Shown in pieces: positions 42-61,346 of a stretch of 64,000 nt of DNA; the stretch's first letter is position 1; each line of letters opens with the position of its first letter. The notes under the pieces were generated by a model. It was given only the letters and a program-made list of their open reading frames with translations. It ran no database searches and was not told the origin of the DNA. The DNA lies in IMG/VR virus record IMGVR_UViG_3300013121_000019, positions 68,375-132,374 of that record; one strand, written 5' to 3'. Source of the stretch: a virus. Taxonomy: Duplodnaviria; Caudoviricetes. The position numbers were made by a program, and so were the translations under genes.

Positions 42-59
42 GGTATAAGGACACTGAAG
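42..59 (+). promoter_or_regulatory. phage promoter motif GGTATAAG-N6-GAAG
   Basis: Copy of a motif recurring upstream of non-structural genes; followed by AAGGGAG RBS and ATG at 69. Confidence 0.7.
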
Positions 60-4498: not shown

Positions 4499-5056
4499 CT
4501 ACCTCAGTTCGCTGGGGCCAACACCATGCCCGGCCGGCGCCGGATCATCGTGCAGCACTTGAGTTTGGTCAATTGCACGAGAGCCGAGGATGCGATCTGC
4601 GTCCTCCTCGGTGTAGACGATCACGGGACCAGAAGATGTTTGCGCGATCAGCTGAACGCGCGCATCGTGGGCCGCCTGGATGATGCGAGTGTCGCGGTAG
4701 AACTCCTCGAACACAACCGTCGTGATGCCGGCGTTGACGATGAGTTTGAAGCACGGCCAACACGGGCTGGCTGTACAGTAGATCGTACTGTTCCGCGTTG
4801 CATGGCCATTGCGGGCAGCTTGCGCGATCGCGTTGACCTCCGCATGGACGGTGCGGACGCAGTGTCCGTTCTCCATCATGCAGCCAACCCCTTGGTCGTC
4901 ACAGTGCGCTGTTCCGGGAAGGCTACCGTTGTAACCGGTCGAAATGATGGTTCTGTCGATGACGATCACGGCTCCGACCTTCTTGCGAAGGCAGGTAGCG
5001 CGTGTCGACACCGTGGAAGCCATCGACAAGAAGTAATCGTGCCAGCTAGCTCTCAT
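4499..5056 (-). CDS. dCMP deaminase (ComEB/DCTD family)
   Basis: WHDYFL..RATC..VGAVIV..STGYNG, HAEVNAI and PCWPC zinc motifs. Confidence 0.92.
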   Translation of the reverse strand: MRASWHDYFLSMASTVSTRATCLRKKVGAVIVIDRTIISTGYNGSLPGTAHCDDQGVGCMMENGHCVRTVHAEVNAIAQAARNGHATRNSTIYCTASPCWPCFKLIVNAGITTVVFEEFYRDTRIIQAAHDARVQLIAQTSSGPVIVYTEEDADRILGSRAIDQTQVLHDDPAPAGHGVGPSELR

Positions 5057-6105
5057 GCTGCTCCTGGACGTGTCAACGCCTGCAGGCGCTGAACGGTGTG
5101 ATGGTCGAACAGGCCGTTGATGGTCATGCGCTGCTGAGACTGGAACGTCATGATCGCGTCGGTGGTCTTACGGCCAACAACGCCGTCTGCACCCGCTGGC
5201 CCGAGGTCGAAGCCCAGCACCAACAGCATCTCCTGAAGCCGCACGATGGATGGCGTGTGCGCGGGGACGCGTAGCTCTGCGGCGAAGTCAGGAAGGTCCA
5301 CGCCGTAGCAGCGTTCCAACACCGGACGGATCTTGTTGTAGCGATCCGGGTAGATGGCGATTCCCGAATGGAATGTGAGCCTACGTAGCACGTCCACAAG
5401 GAAGCCGGGCTCAGTGGGCTGATAGCCGGTGGCCATCAGCGAGCGTTGCGCGATCGTCGGATTGTTGGCTGCGAAGCTGACGTAGGCGGCACGTGCCGCC
5501 TGCAGCTCCGGCGTCTCGCTGAGCTCATCGCTGAACAGCATCTTCTTGGCTGCTGGCATCACGAAGCCCATCAGATGATCGACGGTGAACAGCTTCTGCG
5601 CCGCAAGTGCCCGCGGATGTTGCAGATCGGTAGCGATGGCGGCGGCCCACTGTCTGGCGGTCTGCCGCTGCACGCTGTCCCAGGCGTCCGTGCGACCGGA
5701 AGAGCCCCCAAGGAATAGCTGCTGCTGCTCCTTGATGGTATCGACGACGAGTTCACCCAGACGAAATCTCCACTTGTCGCTGTCGACCAGCTCGAAGGTG
5801 CACCCATTGCGCCGGCACTCCGCCTTGAACCTGTCCATGGGTGCCCCGGCTTTGCGACACGCTCCGAGCAGCTGGCTGGCCATGAACTGCCCTGCCTCGG
5901 CGAACTGGATCAGTCCGATCGACAGGATCATGCGATCGTACATGTTGATCGCGTCGTACCGTCCGCCCTCGGTTGCCGTGACGACCGCCAGGATCTTCTC
6001 ATCCTCGGTCGGATCATCCGGTAGCTCGAACGAAATGGTGCCGGAGTACCACGGCCCGGAGAACTCACGGTAGCTACCCCACCTGATGTTGACTGAGTCG
6101 GTCAT
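5053..6105 (-). CDS. lysozyme-like peptidoglycan hydrolase with C-terminal PG-binding domain
   Basis: TEGGRYDAINMYD..SIGLIQF lysozyme-like segment; LQEML..GADGVVGRKTTDAIMTFQ PG_binding_1 signature; ATGA overlap gives start 6105. Confidence 0.7.
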   Translation of the reverse strand: MTDSVNIRWGSYREFSGPWYSGTISFELPDDPTEDEKILAVVTATEGGRYDAINMYDRMILSIGLIQFAEAGQFMASQLLGACRKAGAPMDRFKAECRRNGCTFELVDSDKWRFRLGELVVDTIKEQQQLFLGGSSGRTDAWDSVQRQTARQWAAAIATDLQHPRALAAQKLFTVDHLMGFVMPAAKKMLFSDELSETPELQAARAAYVSFAANNPTIAQRSLMATGYQPTEPGFLVDVLRRLTFHSGIAIYPDRYNKIRPVLERCYGVDLPDFAAELRVPAHTPSIVRLQEMLLVLGFDLGPAGADGVVGRKTTDAIMTFQSQQRMTINGLFDHHTVQRLQALTRPGAA

Positions 6106-6602
6106 CGGTTGCCTGCCCTCTGTGAACGCGCTCGAAGCCGTTCGATGTCCTCTTTCGATAGTTCCTTGTACCGGTTCCACGATGAAGTCGACGCCGGATC
6201 CGTGATGCTCTTGTTTGCGAGCAGCGTCTTACGAAGCTCGCGGTACCAAGCCTCCCCGACGTTGCTCGGTACCTCCCTGGTCTCCATCGCCCAACGGGCC
6301 ATCGGACCATCAGGCCACAAGCCGATCGTGACCGCATTGAAGTAGAGCTCAGCCTGCTCGCCAACGTTGTGGCAGAAGTTGACCTCACGGCGACTGAGGG
6401 TCGCACAGCCTACCACTGCGTTGTCGATGACGAACCACAGCTTGTCGCCGGGCTTGGCTCCCTCGTACTCATCTTCGCTGGCTGGTACGAACAGATCCGT
6501 TTCCGTCGTCTCTACACCTAGCTTGTAGCAGTACAGCCAACGACCCGCCGGACCGTCCGGCGAACGCCCGTCACTGCGAAGTGAGTACGCCCAGTGCTTC
6601 AT
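6102..6602 (-). CDS. hypothetical protein
   Basis: ATGA-coupled start 6602 with GGAGG RBS. Confidence 0.7.
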   Translation of the reverse strand: MKHWAYSLRSDGRSPDGPAGRWLYCYKLGVETTETDLFVPASEDEYEGAKPGDKLWFVIDNAVVGCATLSRREVNFCHNVGEQAELYFNAVTIGLWPDGPMARWAMETREVPSNVGEAWYRELRKTLLANKSITDPASTSSWNRYKELSKEDIERLRARSQRAGNR

Positions 6603-7120
6603 GCGTCCTCCGTAGGGCCCGCTTGGCAACAGCCCTGACTTTGCGTTGTCGTCGATTCTTCGTCTTTGACCACGCGTGCCTCTGAGACCTGGACATCAGC
6701 ATGGTGTCCTTCCAGTGCTGGCAGCGCATGCCGTGCCTGGTCTTTTCTGAACGACTCATCGGGGCTCTCGAGTGCAAGGGTTGTAGCTCTGTCGAGCAAC
6801 CGCTTCAGTAGCGGTTGCAGTTCATTCTGGCTCCGCGCCGACATGACTTCGTTGATCTCGTCGACGGGCCATCTCTCTGGAAACGTGACCTGCACCAGGT
6901 GCATGGTTGGTGCGCCTTGTGCACGCCACTGTGCACGGCGTTCCCTCATCGTCTCGTCTACGACTTCTTTGACACCGTGCGCAACCATGCTGAAGGTGCC
7001 GCTGTCAAAGACAATAGAGACCTGGGTGCCCGTGCCCAGTACGTGGGCATGGGCGCCTGTGAGGCCCCAGAGCACGTAAAGTCCTCCTTGTTGCAGCTCG
7101 TACTTGCAGCTGACGATCAT
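6599..7120 (-). CDS. hypothetical protein
   Basis: ATGA-coupled start at 7120. Confidence 0.6.
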   Translation of the reverse strand: MIVSCKYELQQGGLYVLWGLTGAHAHVLGTGTQVSIVFDSGTFSMVAHGVKEVVDETMRERRAQWRAQGAPTMHLVQVTFPERWPVDEINEVMSARSQNELQPLLKRLLDRATTLALESPDESFRKDQARHALPALEGHHADVQVSEARVVKDEESTTTQSQGCCQAGPTEDA

Positions 7121-7287
7121 GGTACCCGCACATGCCCGTTGCATCGACGAAGATGCCGCTCCGTTCGCCATACGCGAAAACGAAGCACCGTGCGTCGAAG
7201 CGCGTGCAGTACCGCCACCAGCGCATCGTACCCGTGCGCGACGACAACCTGCATGGCCTGTAGCTCATCTGCGCAGAAGTGGATCAT
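7117..7287 (-). CDS. small hypothetical protein (56 aa)
   Basis: ATGA overlaps at both ends; GGAG upstream. Confidence 0.5.
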   Translation of the reverse strand: MIHFCADELQAMQVVVAHGYDALVAVLHALRRTVLRFRVWRTERHLRRCNGHVRVP

Positions 7288-7745
7288 CGAAAGAACTCCA
7301 TGTAGAGGTTGACAGGATGAACCTGCAGCCCGAGAAGGTTTCCCTGGTAGTACGAGAACGTCACAGTGGCGGGCGTGCCTGGAGCCATGCCGAAGCCGTT
7401 GCACCAGGCCCTGTACGGGTCGTGGTTCAGCTCGGGATCGAACTTCGGCCTCCACATGACGGTGAACTCACACGTCAAGACATCCTTACCACGAGTCAGG
7501 TGCAGTACGAAGGCTTGACGATGCGAGTGGCGCTGCACGGACAGTTTTGTGTCCGAAGCCCCTGACCAGTTACCAAGCAGCGTCTCGGTCGATGTTGTTG
7601 CCGGTACCGCGGAGCTGCCGATCATCGGCACACGGCAGGTCGGCGCAGGCGGTGCCGACGTCACTGAGCTAGGTCGCCGCAACTGGTAGAAGACGGCGCA
7701 ACCCGCAATGAACGCAGAGATCCAGATACTACTGCGTACTTTCAC
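7284..7745 (-). CDS. secreted or membrane-anchored hypothetical protein
   Basis: GTG start after AGGAGG; N-terminal hydrophobic segment followed by Pro/Ser/Thr linker. Confidence 0.7.
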   Translation of the reverse strand: MKVRSSIWISAFIAGCAVFYQLRRPSSVTSAPPAPTCRVPMIGSSAVPATTSTETLLGNWSGASDTKLSVQRHSHRQAFVLHLTRGKDVLTCEFTVMWRPKFDPELNHDPYRAWCNGFGMAPGTPATVTFSYYQGNLLGLQVHPVNLYMEFFR

Positions 7746-7778
7746 GTTCCCTCCTATGCTGAGAGTTCAGCTGGTTGT

Positions 7779-7796
7779 CTTCGGACTGCTTATACC
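7779..7796 (-). promoter_or_regulatory. phage promoter motif GGTATAAG-N6-GAAG
   Basis: Exact motif copy upstream of ORF 7745. Confidence 0.7.
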
Positions 7797-7809
7797 GTGA
7801 TTAGTAGCT

Positions 7810-8227
7810 AAATGGCATCCGCCCCCTTTCGGGGGCGGGTACCTATCACGTTGAACGTGCAGATAAGCGTAAGCTACCAGTGAAGGTTGGAAGCAGGACC
7901 TCGAGACCTGTGACCAAGTAAACTGCCCTCGGCCGGGTGGAGACTGCGGTGTGGAGCACACTGCTCCGCATCGTAGTGGGCATCCGGTAACCCTTCGCGT
8001 AACGACTCCTGGGATGGGAGTCGTAACTGTTGCGTACGTTCGGCGGGCACTTAACCGACGCGATCAACAGCTTAGTTGAAGCAACGAACCACAGACAGAA
8101 ACCGAAACTACCTCCTTTGCTGGCGCATCGACGTCATTGTCATGCGCACGCTACACGCCCTACCGCAGGTTCCCTTGCGCTACTGTGGGCGGAGTAGAAG
8201 ACGAGGATGGTCGGCAACACCCTCTTC
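7810..8227 (-). ncRNA. candidate large structured non-coding RNA (~420 nt)
   Basis: No convincing CDS; begins at the promoter motif; near-continuous stems; ends in CCGCCCCC-GAAA-GGGGGCGG hairpin. Confidence 0.6.
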
Positions 8228-8241
8228 TTGATTCTTATACC
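8224..8241 (-). promoter_or_regulatory. phage promoter motif GGTATAAG-N6-GAAG
   Basis: Exact motif copy upstream of the structured non-coding region. Confidence 0.7.
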
Positions 8242-8252
8242 TTGATTGTCCG

Positions 8253-8705
8253 CTACTTGGACAATTCAAGGTTCGTCATGTACTCGGCGATCGGGACCTT
8301 CTGATCTGGCACCGTGATGATGGCCTCTTGACTGAAGTAGTCGAACTCGTACGAGGCATCGTCACCAGCCTTCTCCACTTCTCTGCGGATCCGCCTCGAG
8401 CCGGCGTCGGTTACGTTGATCGTGAGACCGTGGCCAACGCGCACAGCTACACGAAACCGCTTCACCTCGCGGCGTGTAACGACAACGATCTCCTCAGGAT
8501 TAGTGATGGTCCGATGGGGCTTGTCGGCGGCACGCCACGTCGGCTTGGTCGCGGGCTCTCCATCCTCGCGTTTGGCTGGTGTGGACCACGAGAGCTCTGG
8601 ATGTGACAGATCGATGGACTTCCAGACCGCTACGCCGCCACGGTAGCCGAGCCAGTCCCACATACGCTCTGCATCTTCTGGACGGCACTCGTGTAGCTCA
8701 ACCAC
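8253..8705 (-). CDS. hypothetical protein
   Basis: 150-aa ORF coupled to upstream gene. Confidence 0.7.
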   Translation of the reverse strand: MVELHECRPEDAERMWDWLGYRGGVAVWKSIDLSHPELSWSTPAKREDGEPATKPTWRAADKPHRTITNPEEIVVVTRREVKRFRVAVRVGHGLTINVTDAGSRRIRREVEKAGDDASYEFDYFSQEAIITVPDQKVPIAEYMTNLELSK

Positions 8706-9450
8706 CTTCTTTGTCCTTCTTCGGCACCGTGATCGGATAGCTGGCGTGTGCTTCGAGTACCTTATGCAACGGTGGATCCTGCCTGGGCTTCTGCAGGAAG
8801 TCCCACAGTTGGTGCGGCCTCTCTTCGGGTACCTTCAGTGAGTGCACCTTGACGGAGTCCCGCAGTGACGGCTCCACTGCAAGAGCCTGTTGAGCCGTCT
8901 CTGAAAACTGCAATTGGTTTAGCCGATCTACGGATGCAACCATGGCCTCCTGCGACTTCAACGCAGCGGGCATCGCAGCGTTACGGCTCTTGATGACGGT
9001 AACCGTCTTGCTGACCCAGTCACACGTAGTGAACCAATCGGCAGAAGTAGCCGTCACCACCACGGCCCCACCACCGAAAGCGTCGAGCAGCGGCGTGCTG
9101 CACGTGGTGGCCCACTCGACCGCGAAGATACCATCGGGCTTGAACTTGCGAAAGAAGCCCTGGACGATCGTCACCAGATTGTTGAGATCGGCCTGGTCTT
9201 CGCAGTACACCCATAGGTGCTGACGATCGTCCTCGATCAACCATTCGAAGCCAGGCCATCCAAACTCCGTGACGAAGTCGTCTTCGAGCTGCAGGCCGAG
9301 CTCGCGCATCAGGTGGACGAAGACCGTCGGGTCCTCATCCTCGTCGCGGTCAGCCAGCACCTGCGCGAGCCAATCGGCCTGACGGCTGAACTCGTCGGGG
9401 TCTTCCGCCATCGGCAGCGCGGCCGACCAGTGGTCGTACGAATCACTCAT
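8698..9450 (-). CDS. hypothetical protein (MGE-type)
   Basis: 250-aa ORF with GGAG RBS; EWATTCSTPLLDAFGGGA motif reminiscent of uncharacterised plasmid/ICE proteins. Confidence 0.7.
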   Translation of the reverse strand: MSDSYDHWSAALPMAEDPDEFSRQADWLAQVLADRDEDEDPTVFVHLMRELGLQLEDDFVTEFGWPGFEWLIEDDRQHLWVYCEDQADLNNLVTIVQGFFRKFKPDGIFAVEWATTCSTPLLDAFGGGAVVVTATSADWFTTCDWVSKTVTVIKSRNAAMPAALKSQEAMVASVDRLNQLQFSETAQQALAVEPSLRDSVKVHSLKVPEERPHQLWDFLQKPRQDPPLHKVLEAHASYPITVPKKDKEGG

Positions 9451-9661
9451 CTTCGTTCTCCTCCAGCCCGTCGCGCAGCTCGATCACCGGAAGATCCGGC
9501 TTGCTGTTGAACAGAACGGCGCAGCTATCGCCAATGAGCGAAGTCAGATGTGCCAGGTCGTCGACCTCGACCGTCCACCCCTGTAGCTCCTTGTCGAACA
9601 CGGCCGCAGGGTGTGGCTGCTCCATGAAGTTGAAGAATCGGTGGTAGATCTGGAACTTCAC
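9443..9661 (-). CDS. hypothetical protein
   Basis: 72-aa ORF with GTGA overlap. Confidence 0.65.
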   Translation of the reverse strand: MKFQIYHRFFNFMEQPHPAAVFDKELQGWTVEVDDLAHLTSLIGDSCAVLFNSKPDLPVIELRDGLEENEDE

Positions 9662-10134
9662 AGGGACTTCCTTAGAGTGGCCAGCTCATCGGCCATCTTG
9701 CGAAGTTGCTGCTCCAGCGCGTCGAGCCTGGCGATCTGCTCCTTGGTCGTCAGCCGGTCGGCGGCAGGCTTCTTCAGCGAAAGCTCCAGCTGTGCCGTCG
9801 GGAGCTTGATACGTCGGATCTCCGGGCACCGGTCGATCGCCTCGGCGCGGGCCGCGTCCCTTGCCTTCTTCTGGCCGCTCGGCAGCATCTCCCTGTAGAC
9901 CTGCACGATATTTTCTGCGGATTGCTTGCTGACGAGCTTGTTGCGCTTCAGCAGCACGTAGTCCGCCTTGACGCTACGTCCCTTCTTGTCGCCCTCTTCG
10001 TAGAAGAGGTTGTGCAGGATCACGTCGCCGTTGAGTCTAGTCGACTTCACCACACCAATGATGAGGTCACCATTCTTGTTGCCATCGACCTTGACGGCCC
10101 AGTACTGTCCTTTGCGAATCGGGGATACCGGCAT
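9658..10134 (-). CDS. hypothetical protein with C-terminal coiled coil
   Basis: 158-aa basic ORF in operon. Confidence 0.7.
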   Translation of the reverse strand: MPVSPIRKGQYWAVKVDGNKNGDLIIGVVKSTRLNGDVILHNLFYEEGDKKGRSVKADYVLLKRNKLVSKQSAENIVQVYREMLPSGQKKARDAARAEAIDRCPEIRRIKLPTAQLELSLKKPAADRLTTKEQIARLDALEQQLRKMADELATLRKSL

Positions 10135-10137
10135 AGC

Positions 10138-10551
10138 TCACACCCTCTTCTTCGGAACCGTGAAGTCCCACTTGTCACCGTTGGGAGCGCGCACCACCAT
10201 GATGCCGTTCTCCTCGCCGTCGTCGACGATCGCGAAGTCGTACTTCAGAAGCGCGATCCGCACGATTGCGCCAACATCGTGCGGTGTGCTCATGACCTTG
10301 TCGATCGTGGCGTTGACGGCACGAACCTGCTGGGTGTACCAGAGCATGCACAGACCGTGCGCTTTCTCGAAGTCCGGCCACTCCACTCCAGAGGCGAACG
10401 ACTTGACGTCTTCGGACGCCGCGTGCTGAAGAAGCGACAGCGCGTTGACGAGGTTGGCCATGATGTCGTCGCGTTCCGCGTACTCGTCGGATGCCGCACT
10501 CAGTAGCGCCACGATCTTGGGAATGAGAGTTCCTCGGTCATCTTCGCTCAT
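10138..10551 (-). CDS. hypothetical protein
   Basis: Start MSEDDRG at 10551 after AGGAG. Confidence 0.65.
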   Translation of the reverse strand: MSEDDRGTLIPKIVALLSAASDEYAERDDIMANLVNALSLLQHAASEDVKSFASGVEWPDFEKAHGLCMLWYTQQVRAVNATIDKVMSTPHDVGAIVRIALLKYDFAIVDDGEENGIMVVRAPNGDKWDFTVPKKRV

Positions 10552-25223: not shown

Positions 25224-25231
25224 CTTATACC
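25224..25231 (-). promoter_or_regulatory. GGTATAAG promoter core upstream of HNH gene
   Basis: Core motif copy, followed by GGAGG and ATG 25203. Confidence 0.55.
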
Positions 25232-46165: not shown

Positions 46166-46183
46166 GGCATAAGAATAGTGAAG
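46166..46183 (+). promoter_or_regulatory. phage promoter motif GGCATAAG-N6-GAAG
   Basis: Exact motif followed by a GAAGAACG..CGTTCTTC 5' hairpin. Confidence 0.7.
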
Positions 46184-46248
46184 GGAAGAACGACCCACCG
46201 ACGTCGGGGCCGTTCTTCTCCCCACCACCCTTTCACCAGGAGATCACC

Positions 46249-46827
46249 ATGGCAACGCACGAGCTCGACATCAACAACACCCTCGCCAAGCGCCTCAACC
46301 TCGCCGGCAAGACCAAGGAGGAGCAGGAGAAGCTCATCATCGAGGCGCTCGAGGCGCAGGCCAGCCGCGCCGCGGCCGCGCCCGCCGCCACGACGCCGGA
46401 CCCCCAGATCGCCACGGTCCTCGCGGCGATGGCACAGCAGCAGGCCGCGGCCGACCGCCGCGCCGAGCAGGCGCAGGAGCGGTTCGAGGCCGCGATGACG
46501 GCGATGACCGCCGGCCGCACGCAGCCGCAGGGGCCCGGCATCGTCGCGTCGGTCGGCAACTTCACCCGCGACGTCGCGATGGAGGCGGCCCACGAGAACT
46601 GGCGGAGCACGCCCTACGACACCCCGGTCGGCGACTGGGCCCGCCCAGTGACGATCCACGCGGTCGCGTCGGGAGCACAGATCGCTCTCGCCACGGCCGT
46701 CGCGGTCGGCACCGTCGTCGCCGTGAACGCCGCGACCCGCGCCTACACCGGCAAGGGGCTCCTCGGCCACATGGGGATCGGGTCCGAGGCCGGCAGCATG
46801 ACGGTCGCCGCGACCGTCACCGAGTAG
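46249..46827 (+). CDS. Ala-rich membrane-associated hypothetical protein
   Basis: AGGAG RBS; very high GC; C-terminal hydrophobic helix. Confidence 0.75.
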   Translation: MATHELDINNTLAKRLNLAGKTKEEQEKLIIEALEAQASRAAAAPAATTPDPQIATVLAAMAQQQAAADRRAEQAQERFEAAMTAMTAGRTQPQGPGIVASVGNFTRDVAMEAAHENWRSTPYDTPVGDWARPVTIHAVASGAQIALATAVAVGTVVAVNAATRAYTGKGLLGHMGIGSEAGSMTVAATVTE

Positions 46828-51605: not shown

Positions 51606-53645
51606 TCATAGCGCGACAGCGAACGGGTTGTCGGTCTTCTTGACCGATGCGGTCTTCTGCAGCATCAGTACCTTCAGGCCCTCGAGTACCGTCTCGGTGG
51701 ACCGCACGGCCTTCTCCAGCGCCTGAACCGGGATGTCGCGCATCCCAAGACGTGCTGCCATCAGGAGCTCGCACATACGCTTCTGGGCGAACTCGATCGA
51801 CGGCATGTACGAGGTGAACGCCAGCGTGTTCTCCGGGTTGATGAAGCTGAGGCTCAGCACGGTGTCGACAGCCGTCGGGTCCGGGATGACCGACGCCTCC
51901 TTGACGAGATCCTGCCGTAGGTTCGGGACGCCATGGAGCTCCTGTGCCGCCTTACGCAGCGACGCCAGCTTGGCACCCTCGAGGGTCTCGATCGTCCTCA
52001 GGCCCGACAGCGCCACCGGACGGATGCCCTTGGCGGCCTCTGCGAGCTTCTGGCGGGCGTAGCCGGGGTCCGCACCAGCTCCGACCAGTAGGAACATCGC
52101 CTGACGGGCGTTGCAGTCTCGGTCACTGTGGCTGAGCTTCTCGACGACGGGACCGCTGATCTGGAAGCCGTCAGGGCCGCTGCTACGAATGATGGCCGAC
52201 GACAGCATCCGTTGAGCCGAAGCCTGCTTGGTGTAGTCCTCCGGTGTGCTGGCCAGCACGACGTTCTTGGTGTTGTCGAGCGGCATCCAGAAGAAACGCG
52301 CCGGCACCAGCAGCGAGCGCCCACTGAGGACCGGCTTGTCCGTCGTCGGCGTCACGACCACCTGAACCGGACGACCGTCGAACGTTGTGGCCTGTAGGTG
52401 ACCGCCCTCCCCGGTAGAGACAGCGACCTCGATCTTCATCGGCAGCAGTGCCTGCACACGCCCGTTCGGAAGTCGCTCCCAGAAGCACCCGTAGCCACGA
52501 GGACGCCCAGAACGGTTCATGCCGGGGGTGTCGCTGACCTTGACACCGACGATCTCACCCTGAAGTGCCGTCTGGCTACCGTTGGTGAACAGCGTGATCG
52601 GCAGCGAGTGCCCATCGAGATCGATGAGGTTCGGGAAGCAGTGCCCGACGAGCAGCTCTCCCTCGGTGGTCTTGACCTCGTACATGCCGAAGTCCTTGAT
52701 GAACTCCGGGCGGTCTGCCTCCGGGTCATCCGACGCCACTGCGGTTGTAGTGCCGACCGTTGCGGATCCGTTGATGTCGGCCTCGAGGGCCAGCTTGACA
52801 CCCACCAAGCGCACGAGCTCGCCACGATCGACCGTCGTGACCTCCGGGGCCCATGCCAGGTGGCTCGCTGTCTTGACGGTGTAGCCCGCGCCGGGCTGGT
52901 GTTCGACCTGAACCACCGACGGGACCACCATGTCGAGTGCCGCCGCAGCTAGCTTCGACACATCCTGAGGCTCGTAGGATGCCAGACGAGCCAGCGACTC
53001 GTGCGTCGACGCGTTGAGCGAGTACTGCACGTGCAGATTGCGATCGCTGGCGACCTTGTCCGTGAACTGCTCCCAGTCGGACCGGTTGATCGTCGGAAGG
53101 ATCATCGGAAGGATGCTGGCGTACTTGCCCATCGCGCTGGCATCCATGACCATCGCGTTCAGGTTGCCGGACATACCAGCCATCTGACGGTTAGGCGGCC
53201 ACATCTGCCCGAAGATTGCCTGATCGTTGTTCTGCGGCACCGCCAGAGCATCGAACGTGTTGGGCCTGAACAGCGCGCGGCGCAGTCGCTCCTCGGTGAG
53301 CGGCTGGAAGTCGCCCTTCGGGCCGAGCATCAGGTCCAGTGGAAGAAGCTTCCTGTTCTTCACCACGAACGGGACGCGCACCATGTTGACGCCCATGGCG
53401 GTCAGCTGCGGCTGGTCATCCGCCGGCACACTGGTCTGGTTCGAGACCTCGAAGTGCCCGATTGCGTAGCCCTGTTCTGCCTGAACACGGTCCATCACGC
53501 AGTGCGGATCGAAATCCGCTACGTACGGGATCTGCTTGAACAGCTCCTGAGTGATCTCCTGCGGCCAGTTGTTGGGGTCCTCCGAGAGGGGCGTCTCGGC
53601 GGCGACCTTCTCGAACGTCAGGCTCGGTGTTTCGAACAGGTTCAT
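51606..53645 (-). CDS. large K-x-A-rich virion head protein
   Basis: 679 aa; about twelve K-x-A sites. Confidence 0.7.
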   Translation of the reverse strand: MNLFETPSLTFEKVAAETPLSEDPNNWPQEITQELFKQIPYVADFDPHCVMDRVQAEQGYAIGHFEVSNQTSVPADDQPQLTAMGVNMVRVPFVVKNRKLLPLDLMLGPKGDFQPLTEERLRRALFRPNTFDALAVPQNNDQAIFGQMWPPNRQMAGMSGNLNAMVMDASAMGKYASILPMILPTINRSDWEQFTDKVASDRNLHVQYSLNASTHESLARLASYEPQDVSKLAAAALDMVVPSVVQVEHQPGAGYTVKTASHLAWAPEVTTVDRGELVRLVGVKLALEADINGSATVGTTTAVASDDPEADRPEFIKDFGMYEVKTTEGELLVGHCFPNLIDLDGHSLPITLFTNGSQTALQGEIVGVKVSDTPGMNRSGRPRGYGCFWERLPNGRVQALLPMKIEVAVSTGEGGHLQATTFDGRPVQVVVTPTTDKPVLSGRSLLVPARFFWMPLDNTKNVVLASTPEDYTKQASAQRMLSSAIIRSSGPDGFQISGPVVEKLSHSDRDCNARQAMFLLVGAGADPGYARQKLAEAAKGIRPVALSGLRTIETLEGAKLASLRKAAQELHGVPNLRQDLVKEASVIPDPTAVDTVLSLSFINPENTLAFTSYMPSIEFAQKRMCELLMAARLGMRDIPVQALEKAVRSTETVLEGLKVLMLQKTASVKKTDNPFAVAL

Positions 53646-55001: not shown

Positions 55002-58000
55002 TCAGTAGTGGTGCGTCGGAACGTCCTTGAGGTGGCTGTACTGCGGCTTCTTGGAGTCGGTCGACGTGAGGCCAAACTCTACCGCGTAGGCGGAGCCCGG
55101 CACAGGGTGTGTGCCGTGGATGCTCGAAGAGCCGTGAGTTGCGGCCGCGTCGAGGATGGTCGCCGAGATGTGGTTGTGCTGCAGCTTCGCCATCCAGTCT
55201 TCTTGCACCGACAGCGGGAGCATGCTGACGCCCTGAAGCGTCGGCTCGTGCTGGATGGGGCGCTTGCCCTTCAGCTGTGTGGCGTTGATGTGGTTGACGA
55301 CGCTGGTCGGGTGGAACTCCCCACGTAGGATCGTCGGGTGGTCACCCGGGTTGGTGACCTTCGTGAGGTTGCCCATCGCCTTCACGACGATCTCCGATTG
55401 CAGACGGCGCACCCCCTCGTCCTTGAACAGCTGATGGAGCTCGTTCGCCAGGTGCCCCTGGACGACGTCCATGCGGCCCGTTGCCTCCAGCAGCGCGTGC
55501 GGGTTCATGACGGTGCGACTAGGGTCACCCAGCGGCTGCCCCGCCGTGACTTTCATGCCGACCTTCGGCGGTTCCCACCCTTCAACTGGGGCACCGGGCA
55601 GCGGGTGGTGCAGCAGGTTACCTGCGTGGTCACGCCCAACGTGGTGTGGCTTCCCGTCGACGTGGATGGTGGCGCCTGTGCGGTCAACAGAGATGTTGTC
55701 GATCGTGCCACTACGCATGGCCAGTGGTGTTGCGTCCGGCAACGTCTTCGGCAGGTTGGTGAGCTGCTCGAGCTTCGTCAGACCGCCGACCAGCGTGCCG
55801 CCTCCACCAGCTGCACCACCCGTGTGGAACACGCGCATCGACAGCTGCACCGCTCGCTCCCCTAGCGTCTGCGCGGCCACCACACCGGCGTTGGTACCGA
55901 TCGGGGTCAGGCCACCGGAGGTGGTCAGGCCAAGGCACTTCTGGCAGAAGCCATGTGAGTGCTCGCACTTCAACGGACTGCGCACGACCAACGTGGCGTC
56001 CTTCTTGGCTGCGCGAATGCGGTCTACCAGCGATGGAGTCAGAACCGTTCCGGCAGGGATCTCCAGACCGTTCGCCTTGAAGGGCTGTGCCAGGAAGCGG
56101 TCATGAACGTCCGTCGTGTTGCGCCCGTGCTTGTCCACGACCGGCAGCGCGATGCCCTTGTCGGTGCCGCAGTCGGGCTCCGCCACGACCATGTGCATCG
56201 ACGAGTTCATCATGAGTTTCGTCAGGTAGCCGGGACGCTGCACCTCCTGCACCTTCATCACCGTTCCACGGCGCGCTCCGTACATCTGCGTCCAGTACCC
56301 GCCAAGATCTAGGCCCTCCGAGTAGTTCTTTGTGACCGGGATCGGGATGTCGCGACCCAGCGAATCCTGGAACGTCATCGGCGCCAAGACCAGCTGCTTG
56401 TACTGTGTCCACCCGGGCTTGTCGCCGGAGGTGGCCATCAGCGTGAGGTTCGACGGGTTCGAGTCCATGTGGCTCTTGTGCAGCTTCTTCATCTCAGCGT
56501 CGGCTGCCTTCCAGACCTCCACGGCGCGTCGCTCTTTTTCTGGCTCGCGCAGCGACGACTTGTTGATGGCATCGACCTTAGCCTGCGCCGCCATGACGAC
56601 GGTCGCGCGGGTCTTGTTGTCGGGAGTGAAGTCAGAAAGGCTCAGCGTGTGCGCCCCAATAGGCACGTCTTTTCCGATGAGTGTCTGCGGAATCACCCCG
56701 AATGCCGCGCCGTTCCCCAGATCCTTCAGCTTGTTTGCCACCGTGCCGAAGTCAGGCGCGTGATCTCGCGCCAACGTCGTCATGACGTGCGACAACTTGT
56801 CGGACGTCAGTACGTTGTCCATCGAGCCAAGCAGGTACGGGCGCATCGCGGTCGGAAGCGTGTTGGCCACCAGGACTCTGCCGGGCGTCGTTTCCGTTCC
56901 ACCAACCTTCACGACGTCGGAGTACTTCAGTTGCCCGTTCTTGAACGCCTCCGTCACAGCGTCGTGGGAAGAGAACGTATGGGAGGTCTTCTGCCCAGGG
57001 ATCGTCAGCCGGTAGACGCCCAGCAACGACTCCTTGGTCGGTTGGTACATGACTTTGCCCGTCGCCTCATTGAAGAGGTTTGCCGACGGCATCATCTTCT
57101 TGGCCTCCTGCACCGCATCGTGCGCGATCGGCACGTAGAGGCTCACCATGTCTCCGTCAAAGTCTGCGTTGTAGGACCCGCAGATCAACGGATGCACCTG
57201 GATCGCGGTGCCGTTCACGATGCGCGGCTTGAACCCCTGGACGTTGTACTTGTGCAGCGCTGGGTCGCGCTTCATCAGCACGGGGCGCTCTGCGATCACT
57301 TCGTTCAACGCGTGATTCACGAGCTCGCCGTTCTTGGCCAAGTGCTCCTGCGCCACGATCGGCGCCATGCCGGTGTTGACCAGCTTGTTGACGATGAACG
57401 GCCTGAAGAGCTTGACCGCGACGTCACGCGGGATACCCACTTCATCGAGACCTAGTGCCGGCTCAGGAACGATGACGGAGCGTGCCGTCAGGTCCTGTCG
57501 ACGGCTCATCAGGGTCTTCTGGAAGAAGCCCTTCTTCGGTTGGATGCCCTGGATCGTGTGCAACAGTCCCTTCTGATCTGCGCGATCGTACGGAATGCCA
57601 ACCCCCATCAGGGCCTTGACGCCGTCGTACAACGACTTCCGAAGATCGACACGAAACTGCGGCGGTGCCTTCAGCTTCAGGCCGGGTTTCGCTAGCTGCT
57701 CGTTCAGCATCGCGAACTGCACGTAGAGCCCGTTGATGTCGTCGTAGCGGATGTCGCCAGACGGCAACACCGTGACAGGGCGCATGGCGGGCGGTAGTAC
57801 CGGTAGATGGTGCAGCACGTACGCGTCTGCTGCTCCGATCTTCAGCTGGTCTAGCGCGCGCAGGTACTTTGCTCGCTTCAGGAAGTCGTTGATCTTGGCA
57901 GACTTGTTGGACGAGGCAGACAGAAGGGCCAACGTCTTCTTGAGCTCAGCCTGAACATCGATCTTCTTCAGGGCCGCCTCGATGGCCGTGCCGCCGGTCA

Positions 58001-61000
58001 GGCCCTGGTGTGGCTCGACCACGTGCCCGGCTGCCGACAGCCCCTTGGTGCCGGCCACGATAGCGTCGAACTCGTTGCCCTTGAGGTGCAGCAACGAGCA
58101 GATCGGCTCCTCGAACGTCGGGTTAGGTAGCGGCTCCGCCAGCGCGATGTGGCTCCATTTGGTTCCACCGAACCCGCCGGTCAGCTTCTCATCGAACAGA
58201 CCGCCCTTGAGCTCCTTGACGTCCTTCGCACGTACCACCTTGATCGGGTCGGGAATGGCGCCGGCCGACAAGCGCAGGATCTGTTGATCCGTAAGAGGGG
58301 ACAGAACGAAGTTGTGCCCCTTCTTCTCCATGTTGATGCCGGCACCGCGCAAGTACGACTCGAACTTCTTGAAGGCGAACGTCGGCTGCGGTGTCGGTAG
58401 CGGCGTACCTCGCTGGATGGCGCCCCATACCTCGGCGTGCTGGGACACGTGCCCGCCCTTGACGTTCACGTCCTCCGTTGGCGTACCCTCGGACTTCCAC
58501 GTGTTCATCTCGCGGATGTTGGCCTTGGCGCCATGTGCGAGGAGCGCGTAGTAGCCGAGGCTGCCGATCGACTGCCCGCCCTGGTGCCCGCCACCAACAG
58601 GCTGCATGTTCGAATCGTAGTGTTCCTTGGCTGGCTGACCCGGCAGCCCCATTCCGGACCGCACCGATACCTTCTTCTCGACCTGATGCACGAGCTTGTG
58701 GAGGTACTGGTGCCCAACAAGTACCTCCCCAAGAGGCAGCTTCGTCAGCGGATCGATCAGCTTCTCCGTGTCCTTGATGCCGTGTGCGGCCAGATCCGAC
58801 TTGATCTTGTCGAGGTAGTTCACCCCAGGATCGAAGTTGCGAACCGCGTACGGCTTGCCCATCTTCAAGGCGATCTTCGAGGCGGCGGTCTCGAACAGCT
58901 GCGCAGGGTTCATACGTCCCGGCACGCCAAACGGGTTCAGCAACACGTCGACAGGCTTACCGTGCTCGTCGTGTGGCATCTCGTGGTCTGGAATGATGCG
59001 CGTGACGACGCCCTTGTTGGCGGAGCGACCAGCGATCTTGTCGCCGACCTGCATGGACTCCGCAGTGCGCACGTGCACGACGATGTCCTTGCCCTTACGG
59101 TGCGTAGCGATCACCTCGCCGGGATGCTCGGAGTCCCACGCTACGGAGGCGTTGGAGTGATGGGCGGCGAGGCTCTTGTGGATATGCGCCAGCGATGTCT
59201 TGTCTTGCACAGCCAGAGGGCGCAGTGCCACAACCAGAGGGTCTCCAGGCTTCACGATTGTCCCAACGTGGACAACACCGTCGTCACCGATCGTGCTGAG
59301 CTGCTCCTTCGTGTAGACGCCGGGGTGATGAATGTTGAACTTTCGCTTGTCCAAGATCACCGTGTCGTCTGTGCGAAGGCTGGGCTTGTACAGGTGGTTC
59401 GACGTGAACTTCTTTGCAGCCGACTCGCTGATGACAACACCGTCCTCGAAGTTCAGTCCCTTGTAGGGGATGTACGCGACGCGCATGTTGGTGCCGAGCG
59501 CCATGACGCCGTTCTTGGAGAAGTTGGTGTCGGCGATGGTCTGCTTGCTCTTGACGGTGTCTCCAGCCTTTACCAGCGGGATAGACGTGATCATCGCCCG
59601 GGGGTCATTCAGCGGGTAGTGGTCGTACAGTGGCACGTCATGCGCCGTGCCGTCCTTGTCCTTGATGATGATGCTGTCCCGGCGTACCTGGTGAACCGTA
59701 CCGTCGACAGGAGACTGGTGCGACGCTACGTTCCCAAGTACTTCCTCGAACGTGGTGTTGCCGACGCCGGTCTTCACCTGCACAAGCGGCGGCTCGCGGT
59801 GGACCAGCGAGATGGCCTGCTCCATGTGCCTGCCGGCCATCGACGCGCGAGGGCCAGACACCGAAGGCAGCATCGGGATCAAGTTCGACCCGATGTCCCA
59901 CAGCTGTGTGGCCTGCGGAAGCACGTAGTCGGCCTCGCTGATCGGCTTCTTCGAGATATGGTTGCCGACACCCATCGTGCTGACCGACGGGTACAGCGCC
60001 TTCGGTGTCCCGTCGGGTTTCCAAGAGACCTGATCAGGAAGAACCACGTTCGACTGCAAGAACGTTGCCGGGTTGATCCACTCGAGCTTCTTGGTCTTGG
60101 TGTTGTACGCTCGAAGCTGAGCCTCGGATCCGTTCTTGCGCACGCCGAGCGGTAGCCGCAGCGTGATGCCGGTCTTCTCGCCCTCCGGCGTGTGCAGCGG
60201 GTCGATGAATCCGAAGTGGCTCTGGTTGATGAGCTTGGAGCTCTCCATCACCTTGTGCGCCGACTGGATGCCACCGGGCCCCATGACGGTCGTCTGCATG
60301 GAGCTGGCTACCATCTCAAGCGGGTTGATCTGGTCAGGCACCCGGGCGAGAGACGAGCGGAACATCGCGCGTACGGGCTCGTTGAAGAACTCCGTCTTGA
60401 ACGCCTCACGCACGTTGGTGGCGCTATCGATGGTTCGCTGCACCTTAGTGCGGATGCGCGGAATTGCCTGACGAATGTGATCTGCAGCGAACTCACCAGC
60501 CGACCGCAGCGACTTGAAGATCAGGCTGTCGCGGTCATCTTCCGGTTGCCCGTCATGTACGGACAGCAGCCGCTTGGTGGCGGCCGTCATCGCTTCGCCA
60601 GAAGCAAACTCAAACGGGCGCCCGAGCGTCAGCTTGGTCATATCTGGACGAAGCTTCGAGTTGAACAGCAGCGTCCGTAGGTGCTCGACCGCGGCCTCGT
60701 GCGACGGCGGTGCCTCTCCGACTTCCGACTTGTAGAACTTCATCAGCACGCCGGCGGCCCCGCGTACATCCTTGTTGGCTTCCAGGATGTCCTTGCCCCA
60801 CGCGCGCTCGAGTTCCGGATCCGTCATCCCCGCGGCGTGCAGGATCGGGTAAAGCGGCAGATTGCTCTTACCCCAGTTGAACACGAACTGCTTCTTGTCC
60901 GGGTGAAACACGATGTCGAAAGAGCCACGACCAGCCAGGTTGAATCGGCTTTCGAGCTCACCGTTCTGACGTCGACGCGTGTACACGCCCGGGTTCAGCT

Positions 61001-61346
61001 GCCACTGGTTCTCCAGCTGGTACTCCTGCCCACCAACGATGTAGCTGTACCTTCCGCGCGTCATCTTCGGAAGATCCACAAGCTTGACCTTGCGACGGTC
61101 CAACACCTTTCCGGTGGCGTTGTCTCGCAGCGTCACACGGCCGAAGACAGGAACTCCCCAGGTATCCCCGGAGATCTTGGCCTGGTGCTGCGCTTTGATG
61201 TCGTCGGCCTTCGGAACGTGGCCGAACTCCACATCCTCGAGGTGCAGCGACTGCTTGGCACCAGTCAGAGGGAAGTGCTTCTTGATCTCGTCAACGGTCT
61301 GATCGCGCAGAACGTTGAAGCCTTCTTCGGGATTGACGTATGTCAT
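55002..61346 (-). CDS. rpoBC: DNA-directed RNA polymerase, fused beta-beta' single polypeptide
   Basis: Beta motifs GFIDPLHTPEG, GLNFEDG, GDKIAGRSANKGV, LNPFGVPGRMN, GGQSIG; beta' motifs RSVIVP, KRDPALH, YNADFDGD, GARRG, GYLTK, DCGT, VRSPLKC, AAQTLGERAVQLSMRVFHTGG. Confidence 0.95.
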   Translation of the reverse strand: MTYVNPEEGFNVLRDQTVDEIKKHFPLTGAKQSLHLEDVEFGHVPKADDIKAQHQAKISGDTWGVPVFGRVTLRDNATGKVLDRRKVKLVDLPKMTRGRYSYIVGGQEYQLENQWQLNPGVYTRRRQNGELESRFNLAGRGSFDIVFHPDKKQFVFNWGKSNLPLYPILHAAGMTDPELERAWGKDILEANKDVRGAAGVLMKFYKSEVGEAPPSHEAAVEHLRTLLFNSKLRPDMTKLTLGRPFEFASGEAMTAATKRLLSVHDGQPEDDRDSLIFKSLRSAGEFAADHIRQAIPRIRTKVQRTIDSATNVREAFKTEFFNEPVRAMFRSSLARVPDQINPLEMVASSMQTTVMGPGGIQSAHKVMESSKLINQSHFGFIDPLHTPEGEKTGITLRLPLGVRKNGSEAQLRAYNTKTKKLEWINPATFLQSNVVLPDQVSWKPDGTPKALYPSVSTMGVGNHISKKPISEADYVLPQATQLWDIGSNLIPMLPSVSGPRASMAGRHMEQAISLVHREPPLVQVKTGVGNTTFEEVLGNVASHQSPVDGTVHQVRRDSIIIKDKDGTAHDVPLYDHYPLNDPRAMITSIPLVKAGDTVKSKQTIADTNFSKNGVMALGTNMRVAYIPYKGLNFEDGVVISESAAKKFTSNHLYKPSLRTDDTVILDKRKFNIHHPGVYTKEQLSTIGDDGVVHVGTIVKPGDPLVVALRPLAVQDKTSLAHIHKSLAAHHSNASVAWDSEHPGEVIATHRKGKDIVVHVRTAESMQVGDKIAGRSANKGVVTRIIPDHEMPHDEHGKPVDVLLNPFGVPGRMNPAQLFETAASKIALKMGKPYAVRNFDPGVNYLDKIKSDLAAHGIKDTEKLIDPLTKLPLGEVLVGHQYLHKLVHQVEKKVSVRSGMGLPGQPAKEHYDSNMQPVGGGHQGGQSIGSLGYYALLAHGAKANIREMNTWKSEGTPTEDVNVKGGHVSQHAEVWGAIQRGTPLPTPQPTFAFKKFESYLRGAGINMEKKGHNFVLSPLTDQQILRLSAGAIPDPIKVVRAKDVKELKGGLFDEKLTGGFGGTKWSHIALAEPLPNPTFEEPICSLLHLKGNEFDAIVAGTKGLSAAGHVVEPHQGLTGGTAIEAALKKIDVQAELKKTLALLSASSNKSAKINDFLKRAKYLRALDQLKIGAADAYVLHHLPVLPPAMRPVTVLPSGDIRYDDINGLYVQFAMLNEQLAKPGLKLKAPPQFRVDLRKSLYDGVKALMGVGIPYDRADQKGLLHTIQGIQPKKGFFQKTLMSRRQDLTARSVIVPEPALGLDEVGIPRDVAVKLFRPFIVNKLVNTGMAPIVAQEHLAKNGELVNHALNEVIAERPVLMKRDPALHKYNVQGFKPRIVNGTAIQVHPLICGSYNADFDGDMVSLYVPIAHDAVQEAKKMMPSANLFNEATGKVMYQPTKESLLGVYRLTIPGQKTSHTFSSHDAVTEAFKNGQLKYSDVVKVGGTETTPGRVLVANTLPTAMRPYLLGSMDNVLTSDKLSHVMTTLARDHAPDFGTVANKLKDLGNGAAFGVIPQTLIGKDVPIGAHTLSLSDFTPDNKTRATVVMAAQAKVDAINKSSLREPEKERRAVEVWKAADAEMKKLHKSHMDSNPSNLTLMATSGDKPGWTQYKQLVLAPMTFQDSLGRDIPIPVTKNYSEGLDLGGYWTQMYGARRGTVMKVQEVQRPGYLTKLMMNSSMHMVVAEPDCGTDKGIALPVVDKHGRNTTDVHDRFLAQPFKANGLEIPAGTVLTPSLVDRIRAAKKDATLVVRSPLKCEHSHGFCQKCLGLTTSGGLTPIGTNAGVVAAQTLGERAVQLSMRVFHTGGAAGGGGTLVGGLTKLEQLTNLPKTLPDATPLAMRSGTIDNISVDRTGATIHVDGKPHHVGRDHAGNLLHHPLPGAPVEGWEPPKVGMKVTAGQPLGDPSRTVMNPHALLEATGRMDVVQGHLANELHQLFKDEGVRRLQSEIVVKAMGNLTKVTNPGDHPTILRGEFHPTSVVNHINATQLKGKRPIQHEPTLQGVSMLPLSVQEDWMAKLQHNHISATILDAAATHGSSSIHGTHPVPGSAYAVEFGLTSTDSKKPQYSHLKDVPTHHY

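Follow-up and report, generated by a model that had tools for sequence, protein, structure and literature searches.

The phi29 pRNA (RF00044) and the stable RNAs of T4 (species 1/2) are small structural RNAs of phages, 6S RNA is a largely double-stranded rod of ~180 nucleotides (nt) with a central bubble resembling an open promoter, and type III antitoxin RNAs (ToxI-like) consist of tandem direct repeats of about 34 to 36 nt. Phage "morons," as in lambda-like phages, are independent promoter-gene-terminator units located between conserved phage genes. GOLLD (RF01998) and ROOL (RF03087) are large, ornate noncoding RNAs that are often found in phages or prophages (PMC12286853; PMC2864571). The locus described here lies in a 64,000-nt window (the whole stretch of DNA analyzed; positions 68,375 to 132,374 of IMG/VR record IMGVR_UViG_3300013121_000019, a member of the Caudoviricetes), to which all coordinates refer unless the contig is named. 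A gap between two genes of this window appears to hold a lineage-specific, stand-alone gene for a structured noncoding RNA of ~410 nt on the minus strand, a reading to which a probability of roughly 55% is assigned.

The source is an uncultured phage from sludge that encodes its own RNA polymerase. Its viral contig in IMG/VR comprises 132 kb (estimated completeness of ~72%; GC content of ~61%), of which the window takes up the right-hand 64 kb. Folding energy alone leaves the region unremarkable, and the argument therefore depends on comparison with one relative. This relative was found through a homologue of the protein encoded upstream of the gap (85% identical) on the 1,279-nt Logan contig L100, the last 440 nt of which are uncalled and align with the gap. 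A second contig from the same sludge run, L115, overlaps the end of L100 by 20 nt and continues through an identical second promoter-like box into a homologue of the downstream gene. L100 and L115 together span the region from upstream to downstream gene, and the relative thus keeps the whole layout. A sequence-only reading of the window had proposed a promoter-driven, stand-alone RNA gene; the noncoding pattern, compensatory changes in predicted stems, conserved boxes, a hairpin with a GNRA loop and a G-U bias speak for that proposal, while three of its stems fail. A stand-alone structured RNA, without a match in Rfam, is the best-supported reading of these sequences.

Noncoding character of the gap and its promoter-like boxes

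All genes at the locus are on the minus strand, in the order 8253-8705, a gap of 507 nt poor in open reading frames (ORFs) at 7746-8252, and 7284-7745. The gap had been called the largest noncoding one, which holds in that no ORF-poor gap of the window or of the 132-kb contig is larger. A crude gene call ranks it fifth in size among the uncovered stretches of the contig, but long open frames run through the larger stretches and through most of the others, whereas this gap and one outside the window have no such frame. Its GC content (55%) is the lowest among the ORF-poor gaps checked. The longest ORF in the gap (73 amino acids [aa], TTG start) lacks a ribosome-binding site (RBS), is disrupted in L100 by a 1-nt indel (column 226 of alignment A3) and is without a protein homologue in a search of 5.8 billion clusters, which was intended also to catch miscalled ORFs on other copies. 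Codon usage log-odds, from a score trained on the long ORFs of the contig, are negative in all six frames over the gap and range from +5 to +25 in the flanking genes.

A scan with Rfam 15, spanning GOLLD, ROOL, OLE, raiA, HEARO, riboswitches, ribozymes, group I and II introns, RNase P, SRP, 6S and pRNA, gave no match at gathering score across the 132-kb contig. Relaxing the E value to ≤10 brings up only two chance matches that overlap the region, at 15.6 and 12.1 bits where the gathering scores are 35.6 and 75.9, and L100 gives the same outcome. According to ARAGORN, the contig is free of tRNA and tmRNA genes; the sequence-only reading likewise could not match the RNA to either. Bacterial RNase P RNA was considered and rejected: RF00010, RF00011 and RF00373 give no match at an E value of ≤10, and the P4 motifs (GGAAAGUCC... 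/ ACAGAA..CGGCUUA) are absent on reading, the decamer CUCCACCCGG being one that the gap RNA presumably has in common with Escherichia coli M1 RNA. A tRNA-like T-loop at GGUUCG and an 11-nt GNRA receptor at ACUAAG were also rejected, neither being conserved in L100.

The earlier claim of an exact promoter motif, with a separate copy for the next gene, was confirmed: boxes at 8241-8234 and 7796-7789 are each followed by N6-GAAG. The positions of the boxes in the window are as follows.

42-49 (+), 7789-7796 (-), 8234-8241 (-), 25224-25231 (-) and 46166-46173 (+): sites of the GG[T/C/A]ATAAG family
8234..8241, minus strand: promoter-like box 1, GGTATAAG-N6-GAAG, just past the stop codon of gene 8253-8705
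7789..7796, minus strand: promoter-like box 2, GGTATAAG-N6-GAAG, for the downstream gene, with a surrounding 41-nt block identical in L115

The window has four copies of the motif GGTATAAG, where 0.14 would be expected, and the rest of the contig has none. The wider family GG[T/C/A]ATAAG (one mismatch to GGTATAAG allowed) has 12 sites in 132 kb, at least nine of which lie shortly upstream of, and co-oriented with, a gene start or this gap; these are mostly 6 nt ahead of a GAAGG-type RBS and 20 to 35 nt ahead of a start codon. Of the two closest complete relatives, one has a single copy of the motif with GAAG and the other has three, against zero copies of a reversed control. Because every box copy has G where the sigma-70 -10 hexamer needs T(-7), and a sigma-70 promoter scan (TTGACA, 16 to 18 nt, TATAAT; A2 and T6 of the -10 hexamer required) of 7200-8800 finds no sites, the boxes probably represent a phage-specific promoter class. 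They are candidate promoters, their action presumed from sequence, for the phage polymerase or for a host polymerase directed by the phage.

Similar boxes occur elsewhere on the contig. The only other gap of >400 nt lacking a long open frame (86 codons at most) is at contig positions 53077-53541, ~15 kb before the window start, and a GGCATAAG box is present at contig position 52426. At 46166-46252 (+) of the window, a small plus-strand island within the minus-strand structural arm, a GGCATAAG box is followed by a leader of ~75 nt with a strong hairpin (GGGAAGAACG...CGTTCTTCTCC) and an ATG at 46250. Two promoter sites located 1.1 kb apart in relative G005 were considered as an analogous RNA locus and discarded, the interval being filled by ORFs.

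Comparison with the close relative, distribution and occurrence

The proposed RNA is made up of the following parts.

7814..8227, minus strand: proposed RNA of ~410 nt, its putative start at GAAG (8227-8224) and its putative end at the terminal hairpin
8198..8229, minus strand: P1 hairpin, GAAGA-GGGUG/CAUCC-UCUUC, with the RBS-like 5' arm AAGAAGAGGGUGU paired with CAUCCUCGUCUU, which resembles an anti-Shine-Dalgarno sequence; invariant in L100
8151..8197, minus strand: P2/P2a three-tier hairpin (CUAC-CGCCC-...-GGGCG-GUAG), with one compensatory pair, C:G to U:A
8123..8147, minus strand: P3 hairpin (GCGCAUGAC/GUCGAUGCGC) of nine pairs, three of them compensatory and one changed from G-C to G-U
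8110..8117, minus strand: perfect Shine-Dalgarno (SD) 8-mer AAGGAGGU, conserved in L100, with no start codon 4 to 12 nt downstream
8091..8107, minus strand: invariant U-rich tract, the 17-mer UUUCGGUUUCUGUCUGU, after the SD 8-mer
8026..8071, minus strand: P4/P4a hairpin (CUGUUG...CGUCGG/CCGAACG...CAACAG), with invariant stems and all three substitutions in loops or internal loops
8002..8024, minus strand: P5 hairpin (ACGACUCC/GGAGUCGU), with a 7-bp stem kept in L100
7909..7996, minus strand: ultraconserved core of 88 nt, with 6 of 88 columns substituted between the two genomes
7846..7983, minus strand: candidate small ORF (sORF) of 45 aa (MPTTMRS...), with GAAGGG 7 nt ahead of its AUG
7844..7908, minus strand: variable 3' region (37 to 43% identity), the local hairpins of which are not kept, save a small one at 7896-7908
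7814..7843, minus strand: terminal GC-rich hairpin (GGUA-C-CCGCCCCC-GAAA-GGGGGCGG-A-UGCC), followed by AUUUAGC

The upstream gene and the RNA region were each compared with L100. The gene is 78% identical at the nucleotide level, with 98 differences, of which 18, 15 and 65 are at codon positions 1, 2 and 3, and its longest identical runs are 23, 20 and 20 nt. The RNA region is 77% identical, with 24, 28 and 35 differences by column phase and hence no 3-nt periodicity; identical runs of 37, 34, 34 and 30 nt stand beside blocks of 37 to 53% identity, and indels are 1, 2 and 3 nt long. The promoter region around box 1 (20 identical bases) and the 5' end of the RNA (the 37-nt run) form one 57-nt block that is identical in L100. 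Substitutions affect 28 of 232 paired columns versus 68 of 190 unpaired columns. The 13-mer AAGAAGAGGGTGT at the 5' end of the RNA (8217-8229, minus strand) has no start codon after it; the same 13-mer is the ribosome-binding region of gene 9658-10134, at 10140-10152 (minus strand), 5 nt ahead of its ATG. The SD 8-mer AAGGAGGU has only three copies in 132 kb and is predicted to be paired in the ensemble of the window sequence, so its exposure is uncertain.

All of the stems listed in the sequence-only reading are literally present, and since they were predicted from one sequence before the second was seen, double substitutions provide a fair test. Those retained in L100 are CGCCC/GGGCG, GCGCAU/AUGCGC, ACGACUCC/GGAGUCGU, the inner part of CAGG/CCUG, GGAGC/GCUCC and the terminal hairpin; three others were contradicted. 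In P2, CGCCC/GGGCG becomes CGUCC/GGACG through a double substitution in one pair, and the P2/P2a fold is the same from each sequence alone, with one extra pair in L100. In P3, GCGCAU/AUGCGC becomes GAACAU/AUGUUC, and in its inner extension A-U changes to G-C and G-C to G-U. The pair at the base of P4/P4a changes from G.U to A-U, and the z score of this subdomain is -4.5 for the window sequence and -2.9 for that of L100. P5 retains seven pairs despite the loss of one nucleotide from its 3' arm and a U-to-C change in its 5' arm. A G-C pair becomes A-U in the hairpin at 7896-7908, and the inner pairs of the CAGG/CCUG hairpin are supported while its outer pairs are broken. The GGAGC/GCUCC stem is kept with four loop bases changed, and the terminal stem (8 bp of perfect GC, extendable to 12 bp) is kept with a change of loop from GAAA to GCAA, both of the GNRA type. 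The P1 stem, CUGUUG/CAACAG, UGCCC/GGGCA and UGCGG/CCGCA are unchanged in L100 and hence uninformative; for the nesting of the last two, the comparison gives no discrimination, the core being invariant. The 5' domain and P4/P5 have the same minimum free energy (MFE) fold from each sequence alone, within one or two pairs. The alifold energy of the two-sequence alignment is 7 standard deviations below that of column shuffles, for a consensus structure derived in part from the same two sequences.

The core differs from these hairpins. Four of its six substitutions are in the loop of the GGAGC/GCUCC hairpin, one is in the next loop and one is near the 3' edge, and it folds no better than shuffled sequences (z scores of -0.85 and -0.44). 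Because it is almost invariant yet lacks a thermodynamic signal, the constraint on it is not one of secondary structure but of sequence, tertiary contacts, a partner or coding.

The same alignment bears on the strand of the RNA. The minus-strand helices contain ~11 G-U positions versus 3 A.C positions; all three A.C positions are in one helix, for which an alternative pairing from the sequence-only reading avoids them. The excess of G-U suggests a minus-strand RNA, since a plus-strand RNA or a DNA cruciform would have C.A mismatches at these positions, and the terminal loop is a GNRA loop on the minus strand only. The G-U bias, the GNRA loops, both boxes and both neighboring genes favor the minus strand as the RNA strand.

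The minus strand of the 418-nt region has an MFE of -165.2 kcal/mol and folds better than dinucleotide shuffles (z = -3.25). The corresponding values are -176.1 kcal/mol and z = -4.86 for the plus strand (418 nt) and -161.8 kcal/mol and z = -2.36 for the L100 copy (416 nt). As a genome control, 440 windows of 418 nt across the contig were folded, and MFE was regressed on GC content.

The RNA has a restricted distribution. At nine other loci with a homologue of the upstream gene (43 to 64% identity), ORFs follow that gene directly, and the downstream genes are unrelated to those of the window (loci compared for the insertion, L002, L095-L099 and L105-L108). The region had no blastn match in 50,697 phage records, and in 24 related records of phages with a multisubunit RNA polymerase (msRNAP) blastn gave only chance matches of 15 to 20 nt inside coding DNA. 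Covariance models of the core (R1) and the 5' domain (R2) gave nothing significant in 40 related records, the source contig and the fetched loci; the best match (19.3 bits; E = 0.015 per genome) is partly within a gene. Exact 20-mers of three conserved blocks had 0 matches in the public viral contig collection, and the 3 matches in metagenome contigs and 4 in genome contigs were all due to chance, in unrelated coding DNA without flanking similarity. Because the relatives' loci lack the RNA and the searches found no copies, the RNA and the orphan downstream gene are best described as an insertion specific to this lineage, arranged like a moron and situated in a variable accessory region.

The stretch itself recurs in sequencing runs. 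At least one-fourth of its sampled words is present in 16 metagenome runs from sludge, wastewater or groundwater, and a small share in another 4; these 20 runs, 4 of them metatranscriptomes, come from 12 studies. Contigs from two RNA libraries of different studies are 100% identical to 7877-8178 and 7977-8160. Contigs of two RNA and two DNA runs were placed on 6700-9300, with patchy cover at a depth of ~2 to 5, uncovered parts being uninformative. The RNA-library contigs, which reveal neither the ends, the strand nor the level of a transcript, are a weak hint of expression.

Several observations weigh against a stand-alone RNA gene. Ranked among the windows of the genome control, the minus-strand MFE falls at an unremarkable 10th percentile and is surpassed by that of the plus strand (1.5th percentile). 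Eight compensatory pairs, with none broken, compare with 5.1 ± 1.9 in column-shuffled alignments (P of ~0.09) for an alignment of two sequences only, and since these are the only two known and are ~77% identical, covariation has no statistical power. The three stems that failed are AGCAA/UUGCU, in which a G-to-A change in L100 gives A.C, the long-range GAAGG/CCUUC, the 3' arm of which is absent from L100, and CACGU/ACGUG, which is not kept. The terminal hairpin lacks a U-tract and may allow read-through into the next gene, and since no terminator separates the upstream gene from the RNA, the latter could also be carried as a 3' untranslated region (UTR). The most conserved block overlaps a plausibly initiated sORF of 45 aa (GAAGGG-N7-AUG). 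Furthermore, the RNA-library contigs have a depth of ~2, and one of the runs also contains a piece of a neighboring gene, so they may stem from contaminating DNA.

Alternative explanations for the conserved gap

The box could instead drive an mRNA for a small protein, encoded by the 45-aa sORF (7983-7846) or by a 25-aa frame at the 5' end, with the hairpins forming a structured leader or the RNA having a dual function; this is unlikely but deserves the most weight among the alternatives. Small unannotated genes are common in phages, and the GAAGGG located 7 nt ahead of AUG 7983 has the RBS type and spacing of real genes of this phage. The first 24 codons of the 45-aa sORF are kept in L100, and the codon score of its frame, though negative, is the highest in the gap. 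However, 22 of these 24 codons are identical in nucleotides and there is zero synonymous change, while ~43% of the codons of the neighboring gene differ at position 3. Zero synonymous change would arise by chance with a probability of ~4e-6, and the constraint is for this reason placed on nucleotides. Beyond codon 24, the two tails are unrelated (45 aa in total versus 36 aa), GC content at the third codon position is only ~61%, the codon score is slightly below zero and the compensatory changes fall outside the sORF. In addition, the 25-aa frame has no usable start spacing, and the longest open frame of the gap is the one without a protein homologue. From the codon comparison, it is unlikely that the 45-aa sORF explains the conservation.

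Slightly less probable is a cis-acting UTR, either a structured 3' UTR of the upstream operon or a leader or attenuator controlling read-through to the downstream gene. The lack of a terminator between 8253-8705 and the gap would suit the former, and read-through is plausible at a terminal hairpin that has no U-tract, a tail of AUGCCAUUUAGC and no minus-strand terminator called in a terminator scan. The RNA and the orphan downstream gene co-occur in both genomes and in no other, and the RBS-like 5' end is sequestered in P1, as in translational or attenuation switches. Against this, the gap has a complete and fully conserved box at its 5' end, and another box separates the hairpin from the next gene, so that neither neighbor needs the gap for expression. 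A length of 410 nt, at least five hairpin domains and an invariant core are well beyond known attenuators, and there is no match to a riboswitch, T-box or leader family in Rfam.

An element acting as DNA or through an R-loop, such as a replication origin or primer transcript, or an inverted-repeat site for recombination or packaging, is improbable. Both strands fold well and the plus strand does so better (z = -4.86; 1.5th percentile), Watson-Crick compensatory changes would preserve DNA hairpins too, and the GC content of the gap is the lowest of the ORF-poor gaps (55%). The arrangement of a promoter followed by noncoding DNA also fits transcription-primed origins (T4 oriF/oriG, T7 and ColE1 RNA II). 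Nevertheless, no iterons, direct repeats or clearly AT-rich unwinding element are found in the gap, which lies away from any strand switch or turning point of GC skew, and the element is absent from relatives that must replicate too. The ~11 G-U versus 3 A.C positions are tolerated only by a minus-strand RNA, and conservation of the GNRA loop is strand specific.

Least probable is a gap of no function, in which a decaying gene-start remnant and spacer carry incidental GC-rich hairpins and the identical blocks result from recent recombination: the first 13 nt are a real RBS region of the same phage without a start codon after it, MFE is ordinary among genome windows and only two close genomes carry the RNA, but identical blocks of 30 to 57 nt alternating with variable loops, together with double changes that restore pairing in at least two hairpins, are not products of decay or recombination, and the contigs of all four runs placed on the stretch are 100% identical to it, with 20 runs from 12 studies holding at least part of it.

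Genomic setting, possible roles and relation to known systems

The genes that flank the proposed RNA gene, and two that characterize the phage, are as follows.

8253..8705, minus strand: upstream gene, 150 aa, hypothetical protein of a family conserved in related phages
7284..7745, minus strand: downstream gene, 153 aa, orphan with an N-terminal membrane anchor, found only in the window and L115
19725-23642, minus strand: SNF2-family helicase, split by an intein with a LAGLIDADG homing endonuclease domain (Pfam matches)
55002-61346, minus strand: fused beta-beta' multisubunit RNA polymerase in a single ORF of 2,114 aa, with domains Rpb2_6, Rpb1_2 and Rpb1_5

Neither flanking gene has a match in Pfam or PHROGs. 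The upstream protein has 21 homologues (43 to 85% identity) with invariant W, R-G-G and K-R-F-R motifs, and its AlphaFold 2 model is a very confident alpha/beta structure (predicted local distance difference test score of 94). A Foldseek search of this model against the PDB (E ≤ 0.001) found no fold match, and a profile search against PDB sequences found nothing below an E value of 0.018; one homologue is labeled "ribosomal protein S6" in its source, which was not borne out. The downstream gene starts at GTG 7745, with the RBS AGGAGG 5 nt ahead, whereas the source gene call took a later ATG (113 aa); its L115 orthologue (L115:88-549) was called at 153 aa from an ATG. The N terminus of the downstream protein has a lipobox-like IAGC in the window, and that of the L115 orthologue is a plain hydrophobic anchor. 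Lipoprotein status is doubtful on sequence, because the latter anchor has no Cys.

Also encoded on the contig are an endolysin with a peptidoglycan-binding domain, a dCMP deaminase and a MazG-like enzyme. The RNA segment UGUUGAUCGCGUCGGU (8069-8054) is a perfect complement of the endolysin mRNA (gene 5053-6180, minus strand) at two places, over 14 nt (5943-5956; E = 0.17) and 13 nt (5151-5163; E = 0.68), the best matches in a short-word BLAST search against the contig. One base of this segment differs in L100, and the complementarity may be due to chance or to a repeated codon word.

About 75 IMG/VR contigs, many of them of 170 to 190 kb, carry the same polymerase at 32 to 54% identity. A Caudovirales lineage with a deeply branching msRNAP is known from metagenomes only, and the words "promoter," "noncoding" and "non-coding" have zero occurrences in the text describing it (PMC7481178). 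The polymerase of this phage probably belongs to that lineage, an assignment that fits without amounting to proof.

If the gap does hold a stand-alone RNA gene, transcription would start ~7 nt after box 1 (8241-8234), at GAAG 8227. The transcript would fold in order into hairpins P1 to P3, a linker with the SD 8-mer and the U-rich tract, P4, P5, the 88-nt core and the variable region. It would end at the GNRA-capped, GC-rich hairpin at 7843-7814, which might stop most transcription or protect the 3' end ahead of box 2. The unit would thus have a promoter-product-hairpin layout and stand with an orphan membrane protein gene in a variable accessory region.

Tentatively, the RNA may act in trans as a platform (decoy, sponge or scaffold) to which a protein or the 30S subunit binds, because secondary structure does not explain the sequence conservation of its best-conserved parts, namely, the core, the SD 8-mer and the U-tract. 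It is more doubtful that it represents a new family of trans-acting RNAs directed at the translation or transcription machinery. In the translational version, the SD 8-mer, the U-rich tract and the hairpin sequestering an RBS mimic would capture the 30S subunit or a factor that binds mRNA leaders, favoring the phage's own class of leaders. In the transcriptional version, the invariant core would dock on the fused beta-beta' RNA polymerase of the phage. Two further roles suggested by the sequence-only reading appear unlikely: an antitoxin mimic, because Tandem Repeats Finder (TRF) finds no tandem array but only two-copy matches of 8 to 16 nt, and a 6S-like polymerase regulator, because the fold is multibranched with at least five hairpins and there is no RF00013 match.

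The locus offers a candidate promoter class of this phage, GG[T/C/A]ATAAG-N6-GAAGG, and its ~410-nt promoter-to-hairpin unit seems to encode a structured RNA outside the cataloged families. Two close copies limit what comparison can establish on fold and function. The size of the RNA suits selective 2'-hydroxyl acylation analyzed by primer extension (SHAPE), pull-downs and cryo-electron microscopy, and if it proved to be discrete and abundant, it would join large phage RNAs such as GOLLD and ROOL.

Known systems share single features with the proposed RNA. ToxI-like antitoxins differ from it in their tandem repeats, of which TRF finds no such array in the gap RNA. Regulation of the polymerase in the manner of 6S RNA (RF00013) is conceivable in a phage with its own multisubunit polymerase and a distinct promoter motif, but the gap RNA is multibranched rather than a rod with a central bubble and lacks a match in Rfam. 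Like phi29 pRNA and the T4 RNAs, it is phage encoded and noncoding with its own promoter, and a scaffold role is conceivable; it is, however, two to three times longer, with no RF00044 match and no link to packaging genes or a tRNA cluster. It resembles morons in having its own box and terminal hairpin, in lying between genes and in being absent from the same locus in the relatives checked, but its product is apparently an RNA, its motif is phage specific rather than that of host sigma-70 and its hairpin has no U-tract. Unlike GOLLD and ROOL, it is smaller, has no nearby tRNA genes, has two members and gives no covariance model match to either family even at an E value of ≤10. What it has in common with them is a length of >400 nt, a multihairpin architecture, expression apparently driven by a promoter and conserved cores that alternate with variable peripheral hairpins in a phage genome.

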